12,424 nucleotides of DNA from Naegleria gruberi (lineage: Eukaryota): the NCBI GenBank assembly GCA_000004985.1, contig GG739002.1; one strand, given 5' to 3'. The notes beneath the pieces were generated by a model, which saw only the letters and a list, made by a program, of their open reading frames with translations, did not search any database and had not been told where the DNA came from. Below are positions 333 to 12,424 of the stretch, piece after piece. Each line of letters starts with the position of its first letter. Position 1 is the first letter of the stretch. A program made the position numbers and the translations under genes.

Positions 333-505
333 ATGAGTATGGCTAACTATGATTTAAATGCAAGTGGTGGTGTTAATATTGCATTTGGTACTCTTGAAGT
401 TGTAATTGCTTTATTTTCTATTGTTTATTTACGTTTCCTTTTTTGGATAACTAATAGAATTAATGATAAAGTTGCAAAGAGAACTATTTCAGTAGCTGAT
501 TATTC
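333..505 (+). CDS. OSCA-like gene exon 1 (ATG at 333, ends in phase 2 before GTAAGT at 506)
   Basis: Reads MSMANYDLNASGGVNIAFGTLEVVIALFSIVYLRFLFWITNRINDKVAKRTISVADY(S). The donor is tcg|gtaagt. Confidence 0.6.
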
Positions 506-2727
506 GTAAGTTTTTAGCATTTATTTTTTAATTTATTAAATATAATTAAATTATTTAAATATTACCATATATATACTATTTAACAATAATATTTAATAAT
601 AATTAGAGTACATATTCGTGATTTACCATCAACAGAAGCAGCACATGGTAAAAAACGATTATATAAACATTTTAGTAAATTTGGTAAATTAGATAATATT
701 GCACTAGCCTTAGATTGTGGTGATATAAGTAAATCTATTAAAAAGAAAGATGAACTAATTAAGGAAATTGAAAAATGTGATATTGTAATTAGTAGAGGTG
801 GTTGTTTTGTTTTAATTGAAAAAATTAAGAGAATTTACTTTTCAATTTATTTAAATTTTATTCAAAAAGATATTGCTAAAAGTATGAGAAAGAAAGCTTA
901 TAGATGTACAGGTGATGCTTTTATTAGTATGTTATTTATATATATCTTTATATATTTATATATTTAATATTTTTAATATTTTTATATTTTTATATTTTAT
1001 AATTTTATATTTTTATATTTATTTTAATATTTATTTTATTATTATTAAAATGGTAATGAATTCAGCATTTGAAAATGAAAAGTCTAGATTTAAATGTCTT
1101 CATACATTTAATAGACCAATGATTCAGAGAATTTGTTCTAAATCTGGTACTTATTCTAAAAAGAAACATAGAATTAGAGTTGAACCTGCACATGAACCTC
1201 ATGATATTATTTGGGAAAATTTGTATGTTATTTTTAATTTAATTTTAAATATTTATTTTATATTTATTTTTATATATTTTAAATATTTTTTAGAGAATAT
1301 TCTGTAATTTCCAAATATAGTAGACGTTCAGTATCATTTTTAGCAACAGTACTATTTTCAGGTGCAGTGGTTGCAGTAGCTGTTGTTTTAGAAGTTTTGA
1401 AAAAGGACAAATTTTCAAGTATTTCCATTTCTGATTGGATTGAAAATCCTTCCTTCCAAAATTGGCAAATTTTTGCGAGTCTCGGATTGTCAGTTTTGGT
1501 TTTTATTCTTGTACAAGTAATGACCTATATTTTATATTGTAAGTTTTATTTAAATATTATTTAATATTTAATATTAAATACTTTACAATAATATTAAATA
1601 ATAATATATTACAATATTAATAGTATTATCTAATTTTGAAAAACATCGTTTTCAATTAAATGCTAAACAAAGTTTAATGATGAAAGTAACATTTGGTTCC
1701 TTCTTAACAACAATAGCCTATTTATTTGTATATTTAACATCACCGACAGTTGGCAGTTATTATTCTGAAATGACAGATAATAGTGTTATTATACCAAAAG
1801 GAGCATTTACAATTGGTAATGCTAATATTCCAATTCTAGTTGAAAGTTCAGCATGGTACAGTTCATTATTTTTTGTAACATGTACAAGTGTTGCATCAAA
1901 TACTATTAAGGATGCCTTATTAGGAATTTATCATTATTTTTTAAAAAGATATAGAATTGCAACAAGTGTTACACAAGAAGATTTAAATAAGGCACATGAA
2001 CCACCTGTTTATTCTTATGAATGTATGTTTTTTATTTAAATTTTATCATTTTAATATTTTAATATTTTAATATTTTTTAATTTATTTTTTAATTTAATTT
2101 TAATATAAATATAAATATATAGATAGATATTCATATCAATTAAAAAATATGTTTATTGGTATTGTATTTAGTGGATTATTTCCAGTATCATTATTTATAA
2201 TAACAGGTGGATTAATGGCATGTTATTTTGTTGATAAATTTAATATTTTAAAAATTTATAGAGCTGAAGGTAAAGAAGTTGACTTGTTATCACCTACAGC
2301 ACTCAATTTTTTATCAATTGCATTTTTATTAAGATATATTTTAATGTCAATTACAAGAATTTACTTTACAATAAGTTTAAATTATGATCCATCAAATACT
2401 AGTCAACCTGTACTTTCTATTATTACTCCTTATCATATTTGTTTCTTTTCTGCATTTTTACTTTATATTATTTATTTAATTATTCATTTCTTTACAACTG
2501 GTACTAATTTTGTACAAAAATATTTTTGTTGTCCTAGATTTAGACATCCAAATTATATTACTAAAAATGGTGAAAAATCTATTAATGATTATAGAAATGG
2601 ATTTGATAAATATATTCCACCAATTGATGTTTCAAATGTTAAATATGTTTATCATGGTGAAGAATTAGAAACTGTTGATCCAAATCAAGCAAATTTACAT
2701 CCAAAAACAGCTGCACAAATTGTTTAA
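333..2727 (+). CDS. Six-exon gene for a CSC1/OSCA/TMEM63-like (DUF221) calcium-permeable stress-gated cation channel homologue, about 622 aa. Exons are 333..505, 607..926, 1066..1222, 1324..1538, 1624..2022, 2123..2727
   Basis: The spliced translation carries OSCA-family landmarks. These are an N-terminal TM helix (GTLEVVIALFSIVYLRFLFW), a YSVHIRDLP segment (compare TVLVRNVP), AFITFENEKSR (compare AFVSFKSR), the signature VEPAHEPHDIIWENL (compare APEPRDVFWSNL), and then multiple TM helices. All five introns begin GTAAGT or GTATGT and end in AG. The exon lengths sum to 1869 nt, which is 623 codons, and the phases are consistent at every junction. The stop is TAA at 2725..2727. Reading without splicing hits a stop in every intron. 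Confidence 0.7.
607..926 (+). CDS. OSCA-like gene exon 2
   Basis: The acceptor is aattag|a at 605..606. Reads (S)VHIRDLPSTEAAHGKKRLYKHF...RCTGDAFI. The donor is a|gtatgt at 927. Confidence 0.6.
937..1048. repeat. AT-only microsatellite filling intron 2 (tatattttta / tattttata type units)
   Basis: The interval contains no G or C. It is made of reiterated tatttttata, tattttat and aatatttatttta units. Confidence 0.8.
1066..1222 (+). CDS. OSCA-like gene exon 3 (carries the AP-x-P-x-DI-x-W-x-NL signature)
   Basis: The acceptor is ttcag| at 1064..1065. Reads (T)FENEKSRFKCLHTFNRPMIQRICSKSGTYSKKKHRIRVEPAHEPHDIIWEN(L). The donor is tt|gtatgt at 1223. Confidence 0.6.
1324..1538 (+). CDS. OSCA-like gene exon 4
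   Basis: There is a tandem acceptor atatag|tag|, with AGs at 1319..1320 and 1322..1323. I chose 1323 because it keeps the conserved W-E-N-L motif. Reads (L)RSVSFLATVLFSGAVVAVAVVLEVLKKDKF...QVMTYILY. The donor is t|gtaagt at 1539. Confidence 0.5.
1624..2022 (+). CDS. OSCA-like gene exon 5
   Basis: The acceptor is attaatag| at 1622..1623. Reads (L)LSNFEKHRFQLNAKQSLMMKVTFGSFLTTIAYLFVYLTSP...VYSYE. The donor is t|gtatgt at 2023. Confidence 0.55.
2123..2727 (+). CDS. OSCA-like gene exon 6 (terminal)
   Basis: The acceptor is atatatag| at 2121..2122. Reads (Y)RYSYQLKNMFIGIVFSGLFPVSLFIITGGLMACYF...HPKTAAQIV and ends at a TAA stop. Confidence 0.55.
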
Positions 2728-2799: not shown

Positions 2800-3418
2800 T
2801 TATTGGAACATTTTAAATATATGAAATACATTTGGCACCAACATTTCCAATGTTATTGTCACACTAATATTAAGTTTGGTTAATTGATGTAAATCACAAA
2901 TATATTTGGTTCCTTCGTCTTTGATGTCATTTTTGCTTAGATTAAGTATTGTTAATTGTTTCAGTTGACTAATAAATTTTGCTCCTTCAATACCAATTTC
3001 ATTTGATCTAATATCAAGGCATGTCAATTGCTTCAATCCCCTATATATTGAGCACCTTCCACACCAATCCTATTATGACCAATATTAAGATTTGTTAATT
3101 GATCCATTTTACTAATAAACCTTGCTCCCTCTCCATTCATCTTACTCTCATCAACAGTATCAACAGTAATACTAAGAAAAAACTCTTTTGCTGCAATTTC
3201 ATATTCAGCTCTTGTTTCTTCTATAATATCATAAGAAAAATCAAGACTTGTTCATTAAACCAAATGCGATCATGTTCTTTTCTTTTATATTGTAACAATT
3301 GCCATTTCATTTTCATGTCACACCTCAATAACAGTTTTCTTCTTTGCACAACATTTTAACCATTGTCTTGAAACTAAAGTACAGGTCATTGCTAAAAATT
3401 TAAACTCTTCATGGAATG
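2800..3418 (-). CDS. Leucine-rich-repeat protein of RNI/ribonuclease-inhibitor type. It is 5'-truncated by the gap, has one 75-nt intron (3247..3321), and has one apparent +/-1 frameshift near 3037..3041
   Basis: The minus-strand translation gives tandem repeats of about 24 aa of the L-x-x-L-x-L-x-x-N-x-I-G-x-E-G-A type. The text reads LDFSYDIIEE TRAEYEIAAKEFF LSITVDTVDESKMNGEGARFISKMDQLTNLNIGHNRIGVEGAQYIG | (shift) | LKQLTCLDIRSNEIGIEGAKFISQLKQLTILNLSKNDIKDEGTKYICDLHQLTKLNIS...MFQ, then a stop at 2800..2802. The upstream exon reads ...FHEEFKFLAMTCTLVSRQWLKCCAKKKTVIEV and joins in frame through a GTGACA...ACAAG intron. Confidence 0.55.
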
Positions 3419-4782
3419 NNNNNNNNNNNNNNNNNNNNNNNNNNNNNNNNNNNNNNNNNNNNNNNNNNNNNNNNNNNNNNNNNNNNNNNNNNNNNNNNNN
3501 NNNNNNNNNNNNNNNNNNNNNNNNNNNNNNNNNNNNNNNNNNNNNNNNNNNNNNNNNNNNNNNNNNNNNNNNNNNNNNNNNNNNNNNNNNNNNNNNNNNN
3601 NNNNNNNNNNNNNNNNNNNNNNNNNNNNNNNNNNNNNNNNNNNNNNNNNNNNNNNNNNNNNNNNNNNNNNNNNNNNNNNNNNNNNNNNNNNNNNNNNNNN
3701 NNNNNNNNNNNNNNNNNNNNNNNNNNNNNNNNNNNNNNNNNNNNNNNNNNNNNNNNNNNNNNNNNNNNNNNNNNNNNNNNNNNNNNNNNNNNNNNNNNNN
3801 NNNNNNNNNNNNNNNNNNNNNNNNNNNNNNNNNNNNNNNNNNNNNNNNNNNNNNNNNNNNNNNNNNNNNNNNNNNNNNNNNNNNNNNNNNNNNNNNNNNN
3901 NNNNNNNNNNNNNNNNNNNNNNNNNNNNNNNNNNNNNNNNNNNNNNNNNNNNNNNNNNNNNNNNNNNNNNNNNNNNNNNNNNNNNNNNNNNNNNNNNNNN
4001 NNNNNNNNNNNNNNNNNNNNNNNNNNNNNNNNNNNNNNNNNNNNNNNNNNNNNNNNNNNNNNNNNNNNNNNNNNNNNNNNNNNNNNNNNNNNNNNNNNNN
4101 NNNNNNNNNNNNNNNNNNNNNNNNNNNNNNNNNNNNNNNNNNNNNNNNNNNNNNNNNNNNNNNNNNNNNNNNNNNNNNNNNNNNNNNNNNNNNNNNNNNN
4201 NNNNNNNNNNNNNNNNNNNNNNNNNNNNNNNNNNNNNNNNNNNNNNNNNNNNNNNNNNNNNNNNNNNNNNNNNNNNNNNNNNNNNNNNNNNNNNNNNNNN
4301 NNNNNNNNNNNNNNNNNNNNNNNNNNNNNNNNNNNNNNNNNNNNNNNNNNNNNNNNNNNNNNNNNNNNNNNNNNNNNNNNNNNNNNNNNNNNNNNNNNNN
4401 NNNNNNNNNNNNNNNNNNNNNNNNNNNNNNNNNNNNNNNNNNNNNNNNNNNNNNNNNNNNNNNNNNNNNNNNNNNNNNNNNNNNNNNNNNNNNNNNNNNN
4501 NNNNNNNNNNNNNNNNNNNNNNNNNNNNNNNNNNNNNNNNNNNNNNNNNNNNNNNNNNNNNNNNNNNNNNNNNNNNNNNNNNNNNNNNNNNNNNNNNNNN
4601 NNNNNNNNNNNNNNNNNNNNNNNNNNNNNNNNNNNNNNNNNNNNNNNNNNNNNNNNNNNNNNNNNNNNNNNNNNNNNNNNNNNNNNNNNNNNNNNNNNNN
4701 NNNNNNNNNNNNNNNNNNNNNNNNNNNNNNNNNNNNNNNNNNNNNNNNNNNNNNNNNNNNNNNNNNNNNNNNNNNNNNNNNN
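3419..4782. other. Assembly gap (1364 N)
   Basis: The interval is a run of n. Confidence 0.98.
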
Positions 4783-4827
4783 TCAATCAATCAATTACAA
4801 AAGAGAACTGTTGGTGAATATCTAGCA

Positions 4828-5199
4828 ATGGTAACACATAACAGTGGTAACAAGCATGATGAAAATAAGAATTCTTCCTCAACCAACAAAAAGAAGAAAC
4901 CACTCAAAGGTATTTCAGTAGGTGCACCACTTCCATTCTTTGGAACATGTGAACATTACAAGAATTCAAAGAGATGGTTCAGGTTCGATTGTTGTGGACG
5001 TGCCTATCCATGTGATATTTGCCATGAACTGGAATGCACTGCTCCATCTTCTGACATTATGGGTAGAAAAATGATTTGTGGATATTGCTCAAGAGAACAA
5101 GGACTTGCCCAGACATGTCACTTTTGTCAAAAGAATTTAATCAAAAAGATTTCAGAAAAAACTGGTAGAAGTGCTGCAAAAACCAAACAGCATAAATAA
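4828..5199 (+). CDS. Small CHY-type zinc-finger protein (zf-CHY, Hot13-like), 123 aa from the first ATG. The reading frame stays open upstream to the gap edge at 4783
   Basis: The text C-E-H-Y-x7-F-x-F-D-C-C-G-R-A-Y-P-C-D-I-C-H-E-L-E...C-G-Y-C...C-H-F-C matches the CHY zinc-finger Cys/His pattern. The stop is TAA at 5197..5199. There is no in-frame stop between 4783 and 4828, so the N-terminus may lie in the gap. Confidence 0.55.
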   Translation: MVTHNSGNKHDENKNSSSTNKKKKPLKGISVGAPLPFFGTCEHYKNSKRWFRFDCCGRAYPCDICHELECTAPSSDIMGRKMICGYCSREQGLAQTCHFCQKNLIKKISEKTGRSAAKTKQHK

Positions 5200-5410: not shown

Positions 5411-5695
5411 TTACTGTTTTTGACCTATTCTTGTAACAATTATATCTACTGTCTTTTCTGAGAATATCAATCCAGGGAAAACCTGCTGGTAACTTAATTG
5501 TAAACACAGAGAGTCAGAAGAGCAATGCTGTAATTGTTCAAATATGATTATTGTTCTATTGGATGGTAAAAGATGATGACCCAAAAACTTTCCAGTACGA
5601 GGTTTGTGAAATACTCTCTTTCTCTCGCGTGACTTGCTCTTGGTATAGTTCAGTAATTGGTCACAATTTTGTGTTGCTTTAAGAGTTTGATCCAA
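5411..5695 (-). other. A 94-codon open frame in the SAME frame as 5705..6379, separated from it only by the TAG at 5702..5704. It could be a C-terminal extension (through sequencing error, readthrough or an in-frame mini-intron) or a chance ORF in the 3'UTR
   Basis: The text reads ...VVQITC * KELDQTLKATQNCDQLLNYTKSKSRERKRVFHKPRTGKF.... The frame is identical on both sides of the TAG. A 30-nt GT..AG stretch (gttagaaggagttggatcaaactcttaaag) spanning the TAG is in frame. Confidence 0.25.
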
Positions 5696-5704
5696 CTCCT
5701 TCTA

Positions 5705-6379
5705 ACATGTAATTTGGACAACCGAATTGAAATCAACCCTCTCTTTGTAATAATCAATGGCAGAATATGGTAAAATTACATCTAAAGATGTATCGTCCTC
5801 ATTTCTTGCAATCATTGGTCCAATCACATCTATATCCTCAGGTTTTCCTTCGAATGAGGTGTAATTTCTGTTTGTAGAATATTGATGAGAACTTCTTTTT
5901 GTCTTTGATAATATTCTGAACTTGGGTACTGAGAGTGGAGTTTTGATTAAGGAGCATAATTGCAAGCCAAATTTGTACAGTGTAGCCTTTAAAAGATCCA
6001 GACAGACACTACAAGAGTTATTGAAAGTGGCAAACCACTCCTTAGGGAAATATAAAGTTGTTTCTCTGATATACCTTAATGCACAAGTATCTGGAATTTT
6101 TAGTGTAATGATGTCATTTTCAAGGTTGATTCTCACCAATCCAGAATGGTTAAACGGTAGGAGATATTTAATTACTTCATTTGAACTTCTTCCAGTCAAA
6201 ACACCACGATTTTCATCTTTTTCCAAACCAAACCAATTAGGGAATGAGAAAATAATGACCAATTTTTCTAATAGCTTCTCCTTTAAAGGTGTTTTCATGC
6301 TAATAGTGAGGAGCTGTTTTAACATGTTCTGTTGTTTGGTCCTGTAAATGTTATATGCACTATCGAGTGTGTCTAGCAA
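5705..6379 (-). CDS. Hypothetical protein ORF. It is either the downstream exon(s) of the 6475..6947 gene or a separate tandem gene starting at the ATG on the minus strand at 6323..6325. It ends at TAG (5702..5704)
   Basis: It is a 225-codon open frame with protein-like composition (…LVIIFSFPNWFGLEKDENRGVLTGRSSNEVIKYLLPF…DTCALRYIRETTLYFPKEWF…). I recognise no domain. A possible phase-0 intron, aag|GTGTTG (donor at 6531) … caacAG| (acceptor at 6329), would join it to the upstream ORF, but this is unverified. Confidence 0.4.
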
Positions 6380-6474
6380 TAATTGTTATGGGAAGACTTG
6401 AATGGTTCCTTAGTTCTAGTAAGAAGTATAGCATGTTCTTAGGCGTTCCTGAAAGATCTTCTTCAATTTTGCTT

Positions 6475-6947
6475 TTAAATTGTTTGGCCTTCTATTTGTA
6501 ATTCTGTCCATTTTAAAACAATATTCAACACCTTCTGAACTCGTTCTGCAGAAAAGGATGGCAATGGAGGGCAAGCAATAGAATCAAACTGACTCTTTCC
6601 TTGGATGTCATCATTTCCCAACGCACTTGTTCCTGTAAGTATCATCTTTACATTATTCGAGCAGGGTGATATGGAATAAAGTACCTTTAAGAATTGATGG
6701 TAATCTTCCATTAGTAATTGGCAATCATCTATATGAAAAAATAATAAAGCATCCTTCCCTAAAACTTTACTTTCTCTGAAAAGGTTTCCTTCTGGATTTG
6801 TTACGATTATTCTTTTGTTTGTTTGGCTAAACTGGGGTAAATAATTAATGGTTGAACCAAAAAATTGATGCCATCCACTTGCAGAATTCAGGAATCCAGA
6901 AATACTCGGGCTTATTAGTACTTGATAAACATTAGGGAACAATTTTG
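6475..6947 (-). CDS. Partial CDS whose 5' end is in the gap. It carries a degenerate AAA+-like Walker-B / sensor-1 segment, of the kind seen in ORC3-, Rad17- or clamp-loader-type initiator ATPases. The function is uncertain
   Basis: The text ...KRIIVTNPEGNLFRESKVLGKDALLFFHIDDCQLLMEDYHQFLKVLYSISPCSNNVKMILTGTSALGNDDIQ... fits the hhhhDD (Walker B) … hhhhTGTS (sensor 1) spacing found in ORC/RFC-like proteins. The frame is open into the N run, with no start codon. The TAA stop is at 6475..6477. Confidence 0.35.
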
Positions 6948-7500
6948 NNNNNNNNNNNNNNNNNNNNNNNNNNNNNNNNNNNNNNNNNNNNNNNNNNNNN
7001 NNNNNNNNNNNNNNNNNNNNNNNNNNNNNNNNNNNNNNNNNNNNNNNNNNNNNNNNNNNNNNNNNNNNNNNNNNNNNNNNNNNNNNNNNNNNNNNNNNNN
7101 NNNNNNNNNNNNNNNNNNNNNNNNNNNNNNNNNNNNNNNNNNNNNNNNNNNNNNNNNNNNNNNNNNNNNNNNNNNNNNNNNNNNNNNNNNNNNNNNNNNN
7201 NNNNNNNNNNNNNNNNNNNNNNNNNNNNNNNNNNNNNNNNNNNNNNNNNNNNNNNNNNNNNNNNNNNNNNNNNNNNNNNNNNNNNNNNNNNNNNNNNNNN
7301 NNNNNNNNNNNNNNNNNNNNNNNNNNNNNNNNNNNNNNNNNNNNNNNNNNNNNNNNNNNNNNNNNNNNNNNNNNNNNNNNNNNNNNNNNNNNNNNNNNNN
7401 NNNNNNNNNNNNNNNNNNNNNNNNNNNNNNNNNNNNNNNNNNNNNNNNNNNNNNNNNNNNNNNNNNNNNNNNNNNNNNNNNNNNNNNNNNNNNNNNNNNN
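6948..7500. other. Assembly gap (553 N)
   Basis: The interval is a run of n. Confidence 0.98.
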
Positions 7501-7943
7501 AATGGGTTAAAGCACCAATGAAAATTGATGGTAAAACATTTGTAACTTGTGAACAATACATGATGTATCAGAAGGCACAATTATTCAATGATCATGAAAT
7601 GGCAGAAAAGATTTTAAAAACCTCCGATCCAAAGCAATGTAAAGAATTTGGTAGAAAAGTCAAGAATTTTGATACCAATCAATGGGAAGCCAATAGAGAT
7701 CGAATTGTTTATGAGGGAAATTATGCAAAATTCACACAAAATGAAGAAATGAGAAGAGATTTACTTTCCAGATTGGATGTTGAATATGTTGAAGCTTCTC
7801 CATATGATAAAATTTGGGGAATTGGATTGGAAGAGAAGGATCAGAGAGCTCATGATAGATCTCAATGGAAAGGTTTGAATTTATTAGGTAGAATTATTAC
7901 ACAGATCAGAGATGATTTAATTAATGAATCAGCAAAAAAGTAG
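7501..7943 (+). CDS. NADAR domain protein (DUF1768, YbiA-like N-glycosidase family). It is partial, with its 5' end in the gap
   Basis: The text MKIDGKTFVTCEQYMMYQKAQLF … KFTQNEEMRRDLLSRLDVEYVEASPYDKIWGIGLEEKDQRAHDRSQWKGLNLLGRIITQIRDDL aligns block by block with E. coli YbiA (VDGKTWPTSEHYFQAQKF … LVEHTENDAYWGDG … NRLGYLLMELREQL). The stop is TAG at 7941..7943. Confidence 0.75.
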
Positions 7944-8006: not shown

Positions 8007-9316
8007 ATGGCACAAGAAAAGTATGGTTTTATTGGGAGCATTTCACTCCTGAATCAAAAATTAGAAACACGAATTATTTCTAATTATTTATCAAATTGGC
8101 AAATTCATTATGCAGTTTCGGATTGTTTCAGATATGGTACTATTGCATGTTTAGGATTAAATTTAAGTGAAAATCCCAATGAAATTAAATGTATCATTAT
8201 AAATGATAATCATAATACTAGCAAGCCTCTTGATTTAAATATATGTGAATTAGTAATTGAATTTAAAAATCATGATCCATTGAAATTTGAATGGAAACAT
8301 GTTAAACATTTAGCAATTTCAAAACAATTTCTATTCATTTGCACACATTCTAACAAATTATTTGGAATTAGAAGGGAAAGTGACTTGTATGATGAGAAGG
8401 TTAAACCATTTACGAAATGTATTTCAACTCATGGTAAAATAATTGAAAAGAATATCAATCCCTCACAACCAATAATTTCAAAGGCACCATCTTGTTATAA
8501 TATCTTTGAGATTAATACTGGTAATAATATATTATTTAATAATATTGAATTCATATCAGCTAATATGTGGGCTCTTTTTATTTTATCATCTAATGGAAAT
8601 TTATATAGTATTGGATATAATGGAGATGGAGCTGCTGCAAGAGGTATGAAAAATGTTCAAGATGTTGAATTGGGTGAATGTGAAATCAAGTTGAAAGGTA
8701 AAAAATGTCAAAAGCCAAAATTTATTAAGGTTCTTGGATATAAAAATAAGGTAGCTGCACTTACTGATAATGGAAGAATTTTTTTATGTGGAGAAGGTGA
8801 GTTGTTCAGGTATTGGAATAGTTCAATAATATTTGCAAGATGTTTTACCATTTATGGGTGAGAAATCACGTCGTAATGTTTACGCGTTTAAAGAATTAGA
8901 ATTACCTTACTATTTTACTGATATGGATTTTGATACTACTAATGGTATAACTGGATTTATTAGTGATGATAATTGTGGAATAATAATTGAAAGAGGAGGA
9001 AATGTCAGGAAAATATTTGAAAAAGATATTCAATTGAAGAATTATTCAAGAGATGATAGTGAAGATGAGGAGGATGATGAAAAAGATATTGGAAACCAGG
9101 CAGAAGAAAAGAAACTAATCAAATATTTACGTCATGCTGACTGTGATATTTTAATATATGATAATTATTCTATTGATATCAAATATAGAGGTGTATATTA
9201 TTCATACAAATTGTCAAGTCCTATTTGTTATCCTAACAATGGATGTATTTATGAATTGGCATGTGACAGATTGAATGAACTACGTTTTTGGAGACCAGAA
9301 ACTTTTATTTTATTGT
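8007..9316 (+). CDS. Two-exon partial gene for an RCC1-like repeat protein (beta-propeller type) with an acidic downstream region. The exons are 8007..8796 and 8840..9316 and the intron is 8797..8839. The gene runs into the gap
   Basis: ATG is at 8007. The repeats ALFILSSNGNLYSIGYNGDGAAARG and KVAALTDNGRIFLCGE resemble RCC1 blades. A canonical gag|GTGAGT donor sits at 8797 and an acceptor tttgcaAG| at 8838..8839. Splicing turns G-E-G into G-E-D-VLPFMGEKSRRNVYAFKELELPYYF…SRDDSEDEEDDEKD… and removes the TGA at 8859..8861. The downstream frame stays open for 159 codons until the N run. Confidence 0.5.
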
Positions 9317-10502
9317 NNNNNNNNNNNNNNNNNNNNNNNNNNNNNNNNNNNNNNNNNNNNNNNNNNNNNNNNNNNNNNNNNNNNNNNNNNNNNNNNNNNN
9401 NNNNNNNNNNNNNNNNNNNNNNNNNNNNNNNNNNNNNNNNNNNNNNNNNNNNNNNNNNNNNNNNNNNNNNNNNNNNNNNNNNNNNNNNNNNNNNNNNNNN
9501 NNNNNNNNNNNNNNNNNNNNNNNNNNNNNNNNNNNNNNNNNNNNNNNNNNNNNNNNNNNNNNNNNNNNNNNNNNNNNNNNNNNNNNNNNNNNNNNNNNNN
9601 NNNNNNNNNNNNNNNNNNNNNNNNNNNNNNNNNNNNNNNNNNNNNNNNNNNNNNNNNNNNNNNNNNNNNNNNNNNNNNNNNNNNNNNNNNNNNNNNNNNN
9701 NNNNNNNNNNNNNNNNNNNNNNNNNNNNNNNNNNNNNNNNNNNNNNNNNNNNNNNNNNNNNNNNNNNNNNNNNNNNNNNNNNNNNNNNNNNNNNNNNNNN
9801 NNNNNNNNNNNNNNNNNNNNNNNNNNNNNNNNNNNNNNNNNNNNNNNNNNNNNNNNNNNNNNNNNNNNNNNNNNNNNNNNNNNNNNNNNNNNNNNNNNNN
9901 NNNNNNNNNNNNNNNNNNNNNNNNNNNNNNNNNNNNNNNNNNNNNNNNNNNNNNNNNNNNNNNNNNNNNNNNNNNNNNNNNNNNNNNNNNNNNNNNNNNN
10001 NNNNNNNNNNNNNNNNNNNNNNNNNNNNNNNNNNNNNNNNNNNNNNNNNNNNNNNNNNNNNNNNNNNNNNNNNNNNNNNNNNNNNNNNNNNNNNNNNNNN
10101 NNNNNNNNNNNNNNNNNNNNNNNNNNNNNNNNNNNNNNNNNNNNNNNNNNNNNNNNNNNNNNNNNNNNNNNNNNNNNNNNNNNNNNNNNNNNNNNNNNNN
10201 NNNNNNNNNNNNNNNNNNNNNNNNNNNNNNNNNNNNNNNNNNNNNNNNNNNNNNNNNNNNNNNNNNNNNNNNNNNNNNNNNNNNNNNNNNNNNNNNNNNN
10301 NNNNNNNNNNNNNNNNNNNNNNNNNNNNNNNNNNNNNNNNNNNNNNNNNNNNNNNNNNNNNNNNNNNNNNNNNNNNNNNNNNNNNNNNNNNNNNNNNNNN
10401 NNNNNNNNNNNNNNNNNNNNNNNNNNNNNNNNNNNNNNNNNNNNNNNNNNNNNNNNNNNNNNNNNNNNNNNNNNNNNNNNNNNNNNNNNNNNNNNNNNNN
10501 NN
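9317..10502. other. Assembly gap (1186 N). There is one extra n at 10514
   Basis: The interval is a run of n. Confidence 0.98.
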
Positions 10503-10602: not shown

Positions 10603-12424
10603 ATGCACCTCTTATCTCATCAACACTTGTTGCATTCTTTCAAAAAGTGTCTTCTCCAACAACGCCAACAACAACAACAAATTATTCTTCTCTTACTAGT
10701 ATCGTTATTTCTTGTACTTAATTATCAACAAGTTATGGCCATAAATCCATTATCTATGAAGTTTGGTGGTGAATTATCTGCATCTATGAATGGTCATCAT
10801 TATATTTATTACTACGAAAAGACAATGTTTAATTTAATCTCCATTAAAAACAAATATGACATTTATAATGACACAATGTTATTTAATTCTACTAATTCTA
10901 CTAATTCTACAAATTATGGAACATGTAATCCAATATTATTTCAATTAGGTGATTTTAGTAGAGATGGACCTAATCTACTTTATTCTATTTGTCCTGACAC
11001 TTGGTTGACATCTGCTGTTTCAATTGTATTTTTATTGGTATATATAACTAAAATGGATTCGAATAGAAAGGAAACTAATCATGAAAATTTGAAATCTTCA
11101 ATGAAAGTAGTTCCAAATAATTCAAATATGAATTCTCCAAAAAGTCAATTGTCAAATGTTGAAAGCATTATCAATAATAATCAAGATTCCAGTGATGCCA
11201 CTTCATCTGATGGTGATAATTATTCATATTGGATTGAAAATGAATTGGAAATGAAAAAGAATGTCAAAATTCAAAAGATTTTCAACATTTTACTGAGTCA
11301 GAAATTTGTAATTGCCACCTATCTCACTTCATTCATTATTCACATTTTACTATTCATATTTTTTGGAGCTGTTGAGGAGGGAATTTACAATCAAGATCCA
11401 ATCAAATCAAATAATCAAAGAATTTTCATGGGAGATGGTGGTTTCTTTGTCTCCTCGAGGGGATGTGTCATTACCAATGCCATTACAATTATAGTAGCCA
11501 TTGAATCATTGTTTTATATTGTGGTGGAGATTGTCTTTTTAGTGTTGTGCTTTATCATTCCTAGAGATACGTGGTTTATTAAGAGAGAGACATTATTATT
11601 GACCTTATTGCAATTCTTTTCAATTATTTTATTTGCAATTTGTGGATTTTTGGTACAGGTGACCAAGTTGACTGATTTTTTTGTTCCATTTGGGTTTACC
11701 TTAATGGTTTATTCATTTACTGAGGTTGTGATATGTGTCTTGTTGCCAATATTATATTCTATAGTATTATTGAATCGCACGAAAAAGGAAAGAGTGGAAG
11801 AGTCTGAATTGGAACACTTTTTAAAAAGTAAGAAAACTTTTAATATTTTATTGGATTTTGCTAGAAGAAGGTAAGTGTAAAATTAGTTTAGTTTCTAATA
11901 ATGATTTAAAGTTACTGTCCTGAATCTGTGTTATGTTATCAAGATATTGAAAGATTTAAATTGACAAATAAGAAAAATAGAAAGCAAGCTGCACTTCACA
12001 TTACTAAAACTTATCTGAAACCAAATTCACCTCTCGAATTGAACTTTCCAAAACTTTCTCAAATGTTTGAACAAATATCCAAAGCAATTGAAACTACACC
12101 ACTATTGGAAACAAACTTTTTTGATAATATTCAATGGCATTGTATTGAGGATATGACAGATGTATTCGAAAGGTTGAAGAGTCAAAATAAGGAAGTAAGA
12201 AATATTCTAAAGCAATGGAAAGTTGCATCCCTTAATGATTTAACCACTTCTCAACAAGTTACTCTTCATAACATTACAAGCAATGATACTAATAATAATA
12301 ATAATCAGGAAGAATTGAAAGATATCAAATTGGAATCTAATCACAATTCGCCCATTCAACAAGTTGATGAGCAACAATTAACTAATTCTATAGAGAAATC
12401 AAATGAAAATATGAAGAATCCAAA
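10603..12424 (+). CDS. Seven-transmembrane receptor fused to a C-terminal RGS domain (AtRGS1-like, or fungal class-VI GPCR-like). Exon 1 is 10603 (or the ATG at 10735)..11870, the intron is 11871..11911, and exon 2 is 11912..12424 and continues past the window
   Basis: There are about 7 hydrophobic helices (LTSAVSIVFLLVYIT; FVIATYLTSFIIHILLFIFFGAV; ITNAITIIVAIESLFYIVV; EIVFLVLCFIIP; LLLTLLQFFSIILFAICGFLV; FFVPFGFTLMVYSF; VVICVLLPILYSIVLL). Then comes ELEHFLKSKKTFNILLDFARR, a 41-nt intron (ag|GTAAGT…ttaaAG|), and SYCPESVLCYQDIERFK…KNRKQAALHITKTYLKPNSPLELNF…FFDNIQWHCIEDMTDVFERLKS. These match the RGS-box blocks (FLKSEYSEENIDFW…EEYKK; AKKIYNEFI…EVNLD; [23 protein letters not shown]). Unspliced, the frame stops at TAA 11872..11874. 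Confidence 0.72.
10657..10680 (+). repeat. (caa)n / poly-Gln-encoding tract (QQRQQQQQ) upstream of the likely receptor start
   Basis: The sequence is caacaacgccaacaacaacaacaa. Confidence 0.8.
10885..10914 (+). repeat. (aattctact)x3 coding repeat that gives NSTNSTNSTN, three tandem N-glycosylation sequons in the receptor N-terminal ectodomain
   Basis: There is a direct 9-nt tandem repeat that is in frame with the receptor CDS. Confidence 0.8.

Follow-up and report, generated by a model that had tools for sequence, protein, structure and literature searches.

The locus lies on a small scaffold of the Naegleria gruberi NEG-M draft genome (contig GG739002.1), the whole of which, 12,424 nucleotides with a GC content of 20-35%, was analysed and is called the window in what follows. 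Its 3,104 N fall into three long runs, at 3419-4782, 6948-7500 and 9317-10502, which are assembly gaps. Five neighbouring genes, amounting to about 1,900 codons, are intact, namely an OSCA/TMEM63-like channel gene, a CHY zinc-finger gene, a NADAR gene, an RCC1-like gene and an RGS gene. The OSCA/TMEM63-like gene (333-2727, plus strand) has six exons, separated by canonical introns, and encodes 632 aa with PHM7_cyt and RSN1_7TM. Its region has a GC content of only about 20%, and its five introns, of 71-139 nt, begin with GTA[AT]GT and consist of AATATTTAATAATA-like repeats. They differ greatly from the short introns found where the scaffold has 30-35% GC, i.e. the 43-nt intron of the RCC1-like gene (8797-8839) and the 41-nt intron of the TM-RGS gene (11871-11911). 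Introns of these two lengths had been noted in a first-pass annotation made from the letters of the window, and both are real. The NADAR gene ends in a TAG at 7941..7943, where position 162 of the 163 in the Pfam model is reached.

Also located in the window is an LRR_6/LRR_4 repeat gene (2800-3418, minus strand) that runs into a gap. Its repeat, ...IGVEGAQYIG / LKQLTCLDIRSNEIG..., shifts frame at about 3040 by an apparent 1-base deletion and meets stops further upstream, and the gene may be a second pseudogene on this scaffold or a sign of locally poor sequence. The CHY zinc-finger ORF (4828..5199, plus strand, single exon) is exactly the N. gruberi protein EFC35858.1 / XP_002668602.1. These 123 aa represent no more than the C-terminus of a protein of 474 aa (compare EFC45288.1 on a 441,990-bp scaffold, whose C-terminus differs from EFC35858.1 at 1 of 123 residues), the remainder of the window protein (window 4783-5199, plus strand) being hidden in the gap at 3419-4782. 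The near-identity of the two CHY copies makes it probable that the scaffold represents a second haplotype or else a duplicate of very recent origin. That N. gruberi is heterozygous is mentioned in PMC9928731, with Fritz-Laylin et al. 2010 as the cited source.

An open frame divided by a TAG

On the minus strand, a run of 227 sense codons (ORF1, 6385..5705) is directly followed by an in-frame TAG at 5702..5704, beyond which the same frame stays open for 96 further sense codons (ORF2, 5414..5701) and is closed by a TAA at 5413..5411. The TAG, the frame and the open stretch behind it had all been seen in the first-pass annotation, but its counts of 225 and 94 codons start from the first TTG (6379) and from the TTG at 5695 respectively. 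With a stop frequency of 7.3% per random codon at the local base composition (GC 0.35), the probability of 96 open codons is about 7e-4, so that such a stretch is rarer than the roughly 1% first proposed. Over the six frames of the whole window, 9 of 1305 inter-stop intervals reach 94 codons or more; besides ORF2 and one interval antisense to ORF1, these are the frames of coding exons or ORF1 itself (seven in all). The open frame split by the TAG is a real observation, and chance is ruled out. A 152-codon open frame without Pfam match on the opposite strand (5889-6344, plus strand), antisense to ORF1, probably results from the composition of the sense strand. A Pfam search of ORF1, ORF2 and the 156-aa remnant found upstream gave no matches. 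The codon-usage log-odds of ORF2 (z=2.6) are like those of the homology-supported segments, in a test that is weakly frame-specific and barely separates frames.

On present sampling, the family to which this gene belongs is known from Naegleria, Willaertia and one metagenome contig only. An exhaustive HMMER search of 1.84 billion representative proteins returned three relatives of ORF1, which are N. gruberi XP_002674134.1 (E=8e-46), a metagenome protein and Willaertia magna KAL9652979.1. A word-seeded protein search returned one relative, XP_002674134.1, and the same search with KAL9652979.1 returned only KAL9652979.1 itself. With the 187-aa AAA remnant of the window it gave nothing, though XP_002674134.1 is 57% identical to that remnant by tblastn; negatives from the word-seeded search are therefore unreliable. 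No further relatives were found in metagenome and prokaryote-genome scans, and a profile search of PDB sequences gave only marginal P-loop matches (E>0.1). The metagenome homologue discussed below is a longer cluster mate located on the 5,997-bp contig ERZ27315067 k141_1415138. The homologues carry an N-terminal AAA_22-type P-loop domain (Pfam PF13401), which scores 30.5 bits in XP_002674134.1, 36 bits in the metagenome homologue and 26.8 bits in KAL9652979.1, the cut-off being 27. As judged from sequence, the gene product would be an AAA_22-type P-loop protein of about 635 residues. An AlphaFold model of KAL9652979.1 built on a 5-sequence alignment reached a pLDDT of 39.5 and was unusable.

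The closest relative lies in the same genome. The window copy is an unannotated paralogue of XP_002674134.1 (EFC41390.1, NAEGRDRAFT_70774, a 436-aa 'predicted protein' with Pfam AAA_22), to which it is 57-69% identical through the P-loop domain and the next region, up to the GYS/TVQIWLAIMLLNQ motif. NAEGRDRAFT_70774 differs by its location on another scaffold (358,576 bp) and by its one continuous reading frame, whereas following it along the window copy takes three frame changes. The model ends just past the QIWLA motif, about 200 residues before the end reached in W. magna, and may be truncated; because it stops before the TAG region, it is uninformative on the TAG.

The W. magna protein KAL9652979.1 (hypothetical protein ABK040_015494) belongs to the same family with about 26-31% identity and covers the full length. 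It differs from the window copy in that it is apparently intact, comes from a different genus and has no clear synteny with the window. Synteny through an RGS neighbour was considered and ruled out, the RGS architecture being different. The W. magna gene is an uninterrupted 635-codon ORF (JBEGDK010000058.1 6001-7908). The deposited KAL9652979.1 model, on the other hand, splices out JBEGDK010000058.1 6886-6950, which codes for the family-conserved LLDKIIFIFSFPEDFGF, and extends the C-terminus through a 37-nt intron (7862-7898 of the same record). The uninterrupted ORF is a better fit to the family alignment than the deposited model, which contains a false intron. The metagenome homologue shifts frame within contig positions 3000-3080, between IPDYFTIRYI (stop at 3031-3033) and KGYSIQIW, and some 23 conserved residues (YFPKEW...) are missing from it; either this copy is itself disrupted or the assembly is at fault.

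Both homologues that reach the position of the TAG have glutamine there, encoded by CAA, as can be observed directly. The window codons GTC CAA ATT ACA TGT TAG AAG GAG (VQITC*KE) correspond to GTG CAA ATA ACC TGC CAA AAA GAT (VQITCQKD) in the metagenome homologue and to CGA ATT ACA AGT CAA AAA GAG (RITSQKE) in W. magna, so that VVQITC*KE of the window stands opposite IVQITCQKD and IVRITSQKE respectively. In the multiple alignment around this site, the window reads DFNSVVQITC*KELDQTLKATQ, the metagenome homologue DFNLIVQITCQKDYVVEKAKQ and W. magna EIKLIVRITSQKEGLGKLAKE. The extension of the relatives is equally a direct observation, their frames running on uninterrupted for 147-152 residues past the glutamine (147 in W. 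magna), and homology links the W. magna tail to the metagenome tail (E=8e-17). Whether homologues extend some 95 residues past the TAG had been raised in the first-pass annotation, and these two in fact go about 150 further. By tblastn, the C-terminal ORF of the metagenome homologue aligns through the TAG to 5435 and KAL9652979.1 aligns through it to 5468; BLASTP also carries the W. magna alignment straight across the TAG. ORF2 alone matches the metagenome tail collinearly (BLASTP, E=3e-4) and shares with it, at its end, a ...(V/L)FP(G/N)(L/M)... motif, while its similarity to the more distant W. magna tail is not significant. ORF2, being collinear with the continuation of the relatives, is therefore former coding sequence, a continuation of the same gene, and not a chance 3'UTR. 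A search for the gene in other frames past the TAA at 5411 gave nothing significant.

Frame changes along the copy

Upstream of ORF1, a P-loop (AAA_22-type) remnant is readable on the minus strand in frame -2 (6478..6945). Residues 71-232 of XP_002674134.1 align with 6945..6478 in this frame at 57% identity and residues 110-197 of the metagenome protein returned by the HMMER search align with the remnant at 49% identity (both tblastn). The remnant carries a Walker-B-like LLFFHIDD, in which D replaces E, and KMILTGT, and ends in a TAA (6477..6475) directly after ...LQIEGQTI. The assembly gap (N run, 6948..7500) hides the gene's 5' end together with the Walker A motif, and nothing readable in the window corresponds to residues 1-70 of XP_002674134.1, among them FEPTGTGKTT. 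The segment that follows, KSKIEEDLSGTPKNMLYFLLELRNHSSLPIT (6384..6476, minus strand), is readable in frame -3 only, with a surplus base at each end (about 6477 and about 6383). Residues 234-268 of XP_002674134.1 align with 6491..6384 in frame -3 at 61% identity (47 bits, tblastn), and residues 236-259 of KAL9652979.1 align with the segment in frame -3 too.

Within ORF1, three parts can be distinguished by their matches. The first, QLLLDTLDSAY...YFPKEWFATFNNSCSV (6009..6385, minus strand), is in the ancestral frame -1; residues 270-398 of XP_002674134.1 align with 6385..5999 at 69% identity over the first 129 ORF1 residues, and the metagenome homologue and KAL9652979.1 match this part as well. 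The middle, SFKGYTVQIWLAIMLLNQNSTLSTQVQNIIKDKKKF (5868..6008, minus strand), has its ancestral frame in -3, unlike the open frame of ORF1, and lies between two frameshifts, at about 6011-5993 and 5892-5855, that compensate each other. Its frame -3 translation matches W. magna (E=3e-9), XP_002674134.1 (2e-13) and the metagenome homologue (2e-10), all collinearly, whereas the translation of the same bases in the frame of ORF1 matches none of these three (E about 1). By tblastn, residues 393-430 of XP_002674134.1 align with 6008..5895 in frame -3, and the GY(S/T)(V/I)QIWLA... motif conserved in XP_002674134.1, the metagenome homologue and W. magna is encoded by the window in that frame. The last part, YTSFEGKPED...DFNSVVQITC (5705..5867, minus strand), is again in the ancestral frame -1 and aligns with EYAVFEGLPEG...DFNLIVQITC of the metagenome homologue and with W. 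magna.

The homologues thus demand four frame changes, directly observed at about 6477, about 6383, 6011-5993 and 5892-5855, with the frames following one another along the window in the order -2, -3, -1, -3, -1 and each piece being individually significant. Since the tblastn alignments abut or overlap, no intron explains these changes. Tiny GT...AG 'introns' of 23, 25 and 25 nt that would mend three of the frameshifts were tried and rejected; they would delete conserved residues and their donors are non-canonical. With the TAG as the one nonsense codon, five lesions, four of them frameshifts, fall within about 1.5 kb. ORF1 had first been taken as a single frame, but the alignments do not read it as one ancestral reading frame; it is a mosaic, the middle 45 codons or so of which lie outside the ancestral frame. 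That a shifted frame stays open over 35-45 codons has a chance of a few percent, for an observation made post hoc.

Origin of the stop codon

A true stop at the TAG, with the downstream frame a chance 3'UTR, is barely conceivable. It would be consistent with the lack of a Pfam domain in ORF2 and with the lack of significant similarity between ORF2 alone and W. magna, but 96 open codons are expected so rarely (about 7e-4), the homologues have a glutamine at the site and continue for about 150 residues, and ORF2 is collinear with the metagenome tail at E=3e-4. The situation envisaged in the first-pass annotation, in which orthologues end at the TAG, is not the one found, as the homologues extend and ORF2 matches their tail. 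Just as hard to credit is the suggestion from the same source that the TAG sits inside a spliced in-frame mini-intron of 30 nt (GTTAGA...TTAAAG), which had been placed at 5673..5702 and actually occupies 5706..5677. The segment does have GT...AG boundaries and a length that is a multiple of 3; however, it encodes *KELDQTLK, aligned with QKDYVVEKAK in the metagenome homologue and QKEGLGKLAK in W. magna, and it is thus coding in the family. Its donor, GTTAGA, is to be compared with GTAAGT, GTGAGT or GTATGT in the seven introns of the window, all of which are longer (41-139 nt), and similar chance GT...AG 'fixes' could probably be drawn at the other lesions, where they would also remove conserved residues. 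Programmed readthrough of the TAG, also among the options first offered, or a reading of the TAG as glutamine, by which 96 residues would be added to a functional protein, is very improbable. Near-cognate insertion of glutamine at UAG is known in general, the TAG occupies a glutamine position and the frame past it is open and homologous to coding sequence. Against this, the upstream frame is already broken four times and the relatives carry a sense codon (CAA) with no conserved stop. The context of the stop is TAG-AAG-GAG, which differs from the CARYYA or CUAG readthrough type, and the sequence 3' of the TAG is without unusual structure (111-nt fold, z=0.17). Moreover, TAG ends the NADAR gene on the same scaffold (7941..7943), there are no tRNA genes in the window and no in-frame TAG occurs in the approximately 1,900 codons of the neighbouring genes. 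The genetic code on the scaffold is standard, with genes ending in TAA or TAG.

The reading that we consider probable is that the locus at 6945..5411 (minus strand) is a young duplicated pseudogene and the TAG a nonsense mutation within it. A nonsense mutation in a young pseudogene was among the options of the first-pass annotation, and it is borne out by the glutamine of the relatives and by four frameshifts that had gone unseen. The main rival, an unlikely one, is that the TAG and the indels are sequencing or assembly artefacts, due to low coverage of one contig in this small leftover scaffold, and that the gene is intact in the organism; a base-call error at the TAG had likewise been considered in the first-pass annotation. 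The scaffold has only 12.4 kb with three gaps and near-duplicates part of the 441,990-bp scaffold (with one difference in 123 residues between the CHY proteins), the gene is located in a 2.2-kb contig flanked by gaps, and another 1-base frame break is seen in the LRR gene at about 3040, near a gap. All four frame changes, besides, fit net 1- or 2-base indels, a pattern that low-coverage Sanger errors could mimic. On the other side, the five neighbouring genes, with about 5.8 kb of coding sequence (some 1,900 codons) between them, show no frame breaks, even though four of their ends adjoin gaps. If errors were uniform, the placing of five indels all within 2.1 of 7.9 kb of coding sequence would have a probability of about 1e-3. 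A near-identical intact protein was not returned from the protein database, which holds N. gruberi gene models such as XP_002674134.1, by searches whose negatives are not fully reliable. We infer that genuine mutations underlie the lesions and that this copy yields no protein.

According to the pseudogene reading, 6945..5411 (minus strand) would be a non-functional, fairly young duplicated copy that continues 5' into the assembly gap. The TAG at 5704..5702 would be a substitution at an ancestral glutamine codon, in one step from CAG or in two from CAA, and the 96 codons past it would be what is left of the former C-terminal coding sequence, in which further stops have not yet accumulated. The frame-shifting indels, at least four in number, would make a full-length protein impossible whatever happens at the TAG, and one compensating pair of indels would have left the 227 codons of ORF1 open by luck. 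The ancestral frame contains a single stop in about 500 codons. Unique substitutions number 24 in the window copy versus 16 in XP_002674134.1 with the metagenome homologue as outgroup (p=0.27), and 24 versus 13 with W. magna as outgroup (p=0.10). The lone stop and the non-significant excess of substitutions both fit an inactivation, if any, of recent date.

Of the four known copies, three seem to be damaged, each in its own way: the window copy by four frameshifts and the TAG, NAEGRDRAFT_70774 by its early end and the metagenome homologue by its frame change. There is a slim chance that the AAA_22 family is under rapid birth-and-death turnover, as would be the case for immune/STAND-like or selfish-element-associated ATPases; the damage that hints at it is seen in draft assemblies and gene models. 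Still less likely than such turnover is expression of the window copy via recoding, with readthrough of the TAG as glutamine together with frameshifting.

If the locus is indeed a pseudogene, its significance is mostly one of annotation, in that a small N. gruberi scaffold carries a pseudogene that had gone unannotated, and nothing follows from it for the genetic code, readthrough or splicing in Naegleria. The deposited models of the relatives are imperfect, with a false intron in W. magna and a probably truncated NAEGRDRAFT_70774. As for method, an ORF-stop-ORF arrangement may mix ancestral and shifted frames, and only homologues show its true state.

In comparison with known systems, the locus resembles readthrough genes, such as those with viral UAG-CARYYA or eukaryotic UGA-CUAG extensions, in having one in-frame stop followed by a long protein-like frame. 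It differs from them in that the stop is not conserved (CAA in relatives), neither context nor structure is of their kind and the upstream frame is broken. With eukaryotic duplicated (non-processed) pseudogenes, on the other hand, it shares a paralogous copy, disabling indels and a premature stop, together with long open stretches and a protein-level similarity that are still recognisable. Nothing about it is unusual for that class, the sole curiosity being the compensating pair of frameshifts that keeps 227 codons open.
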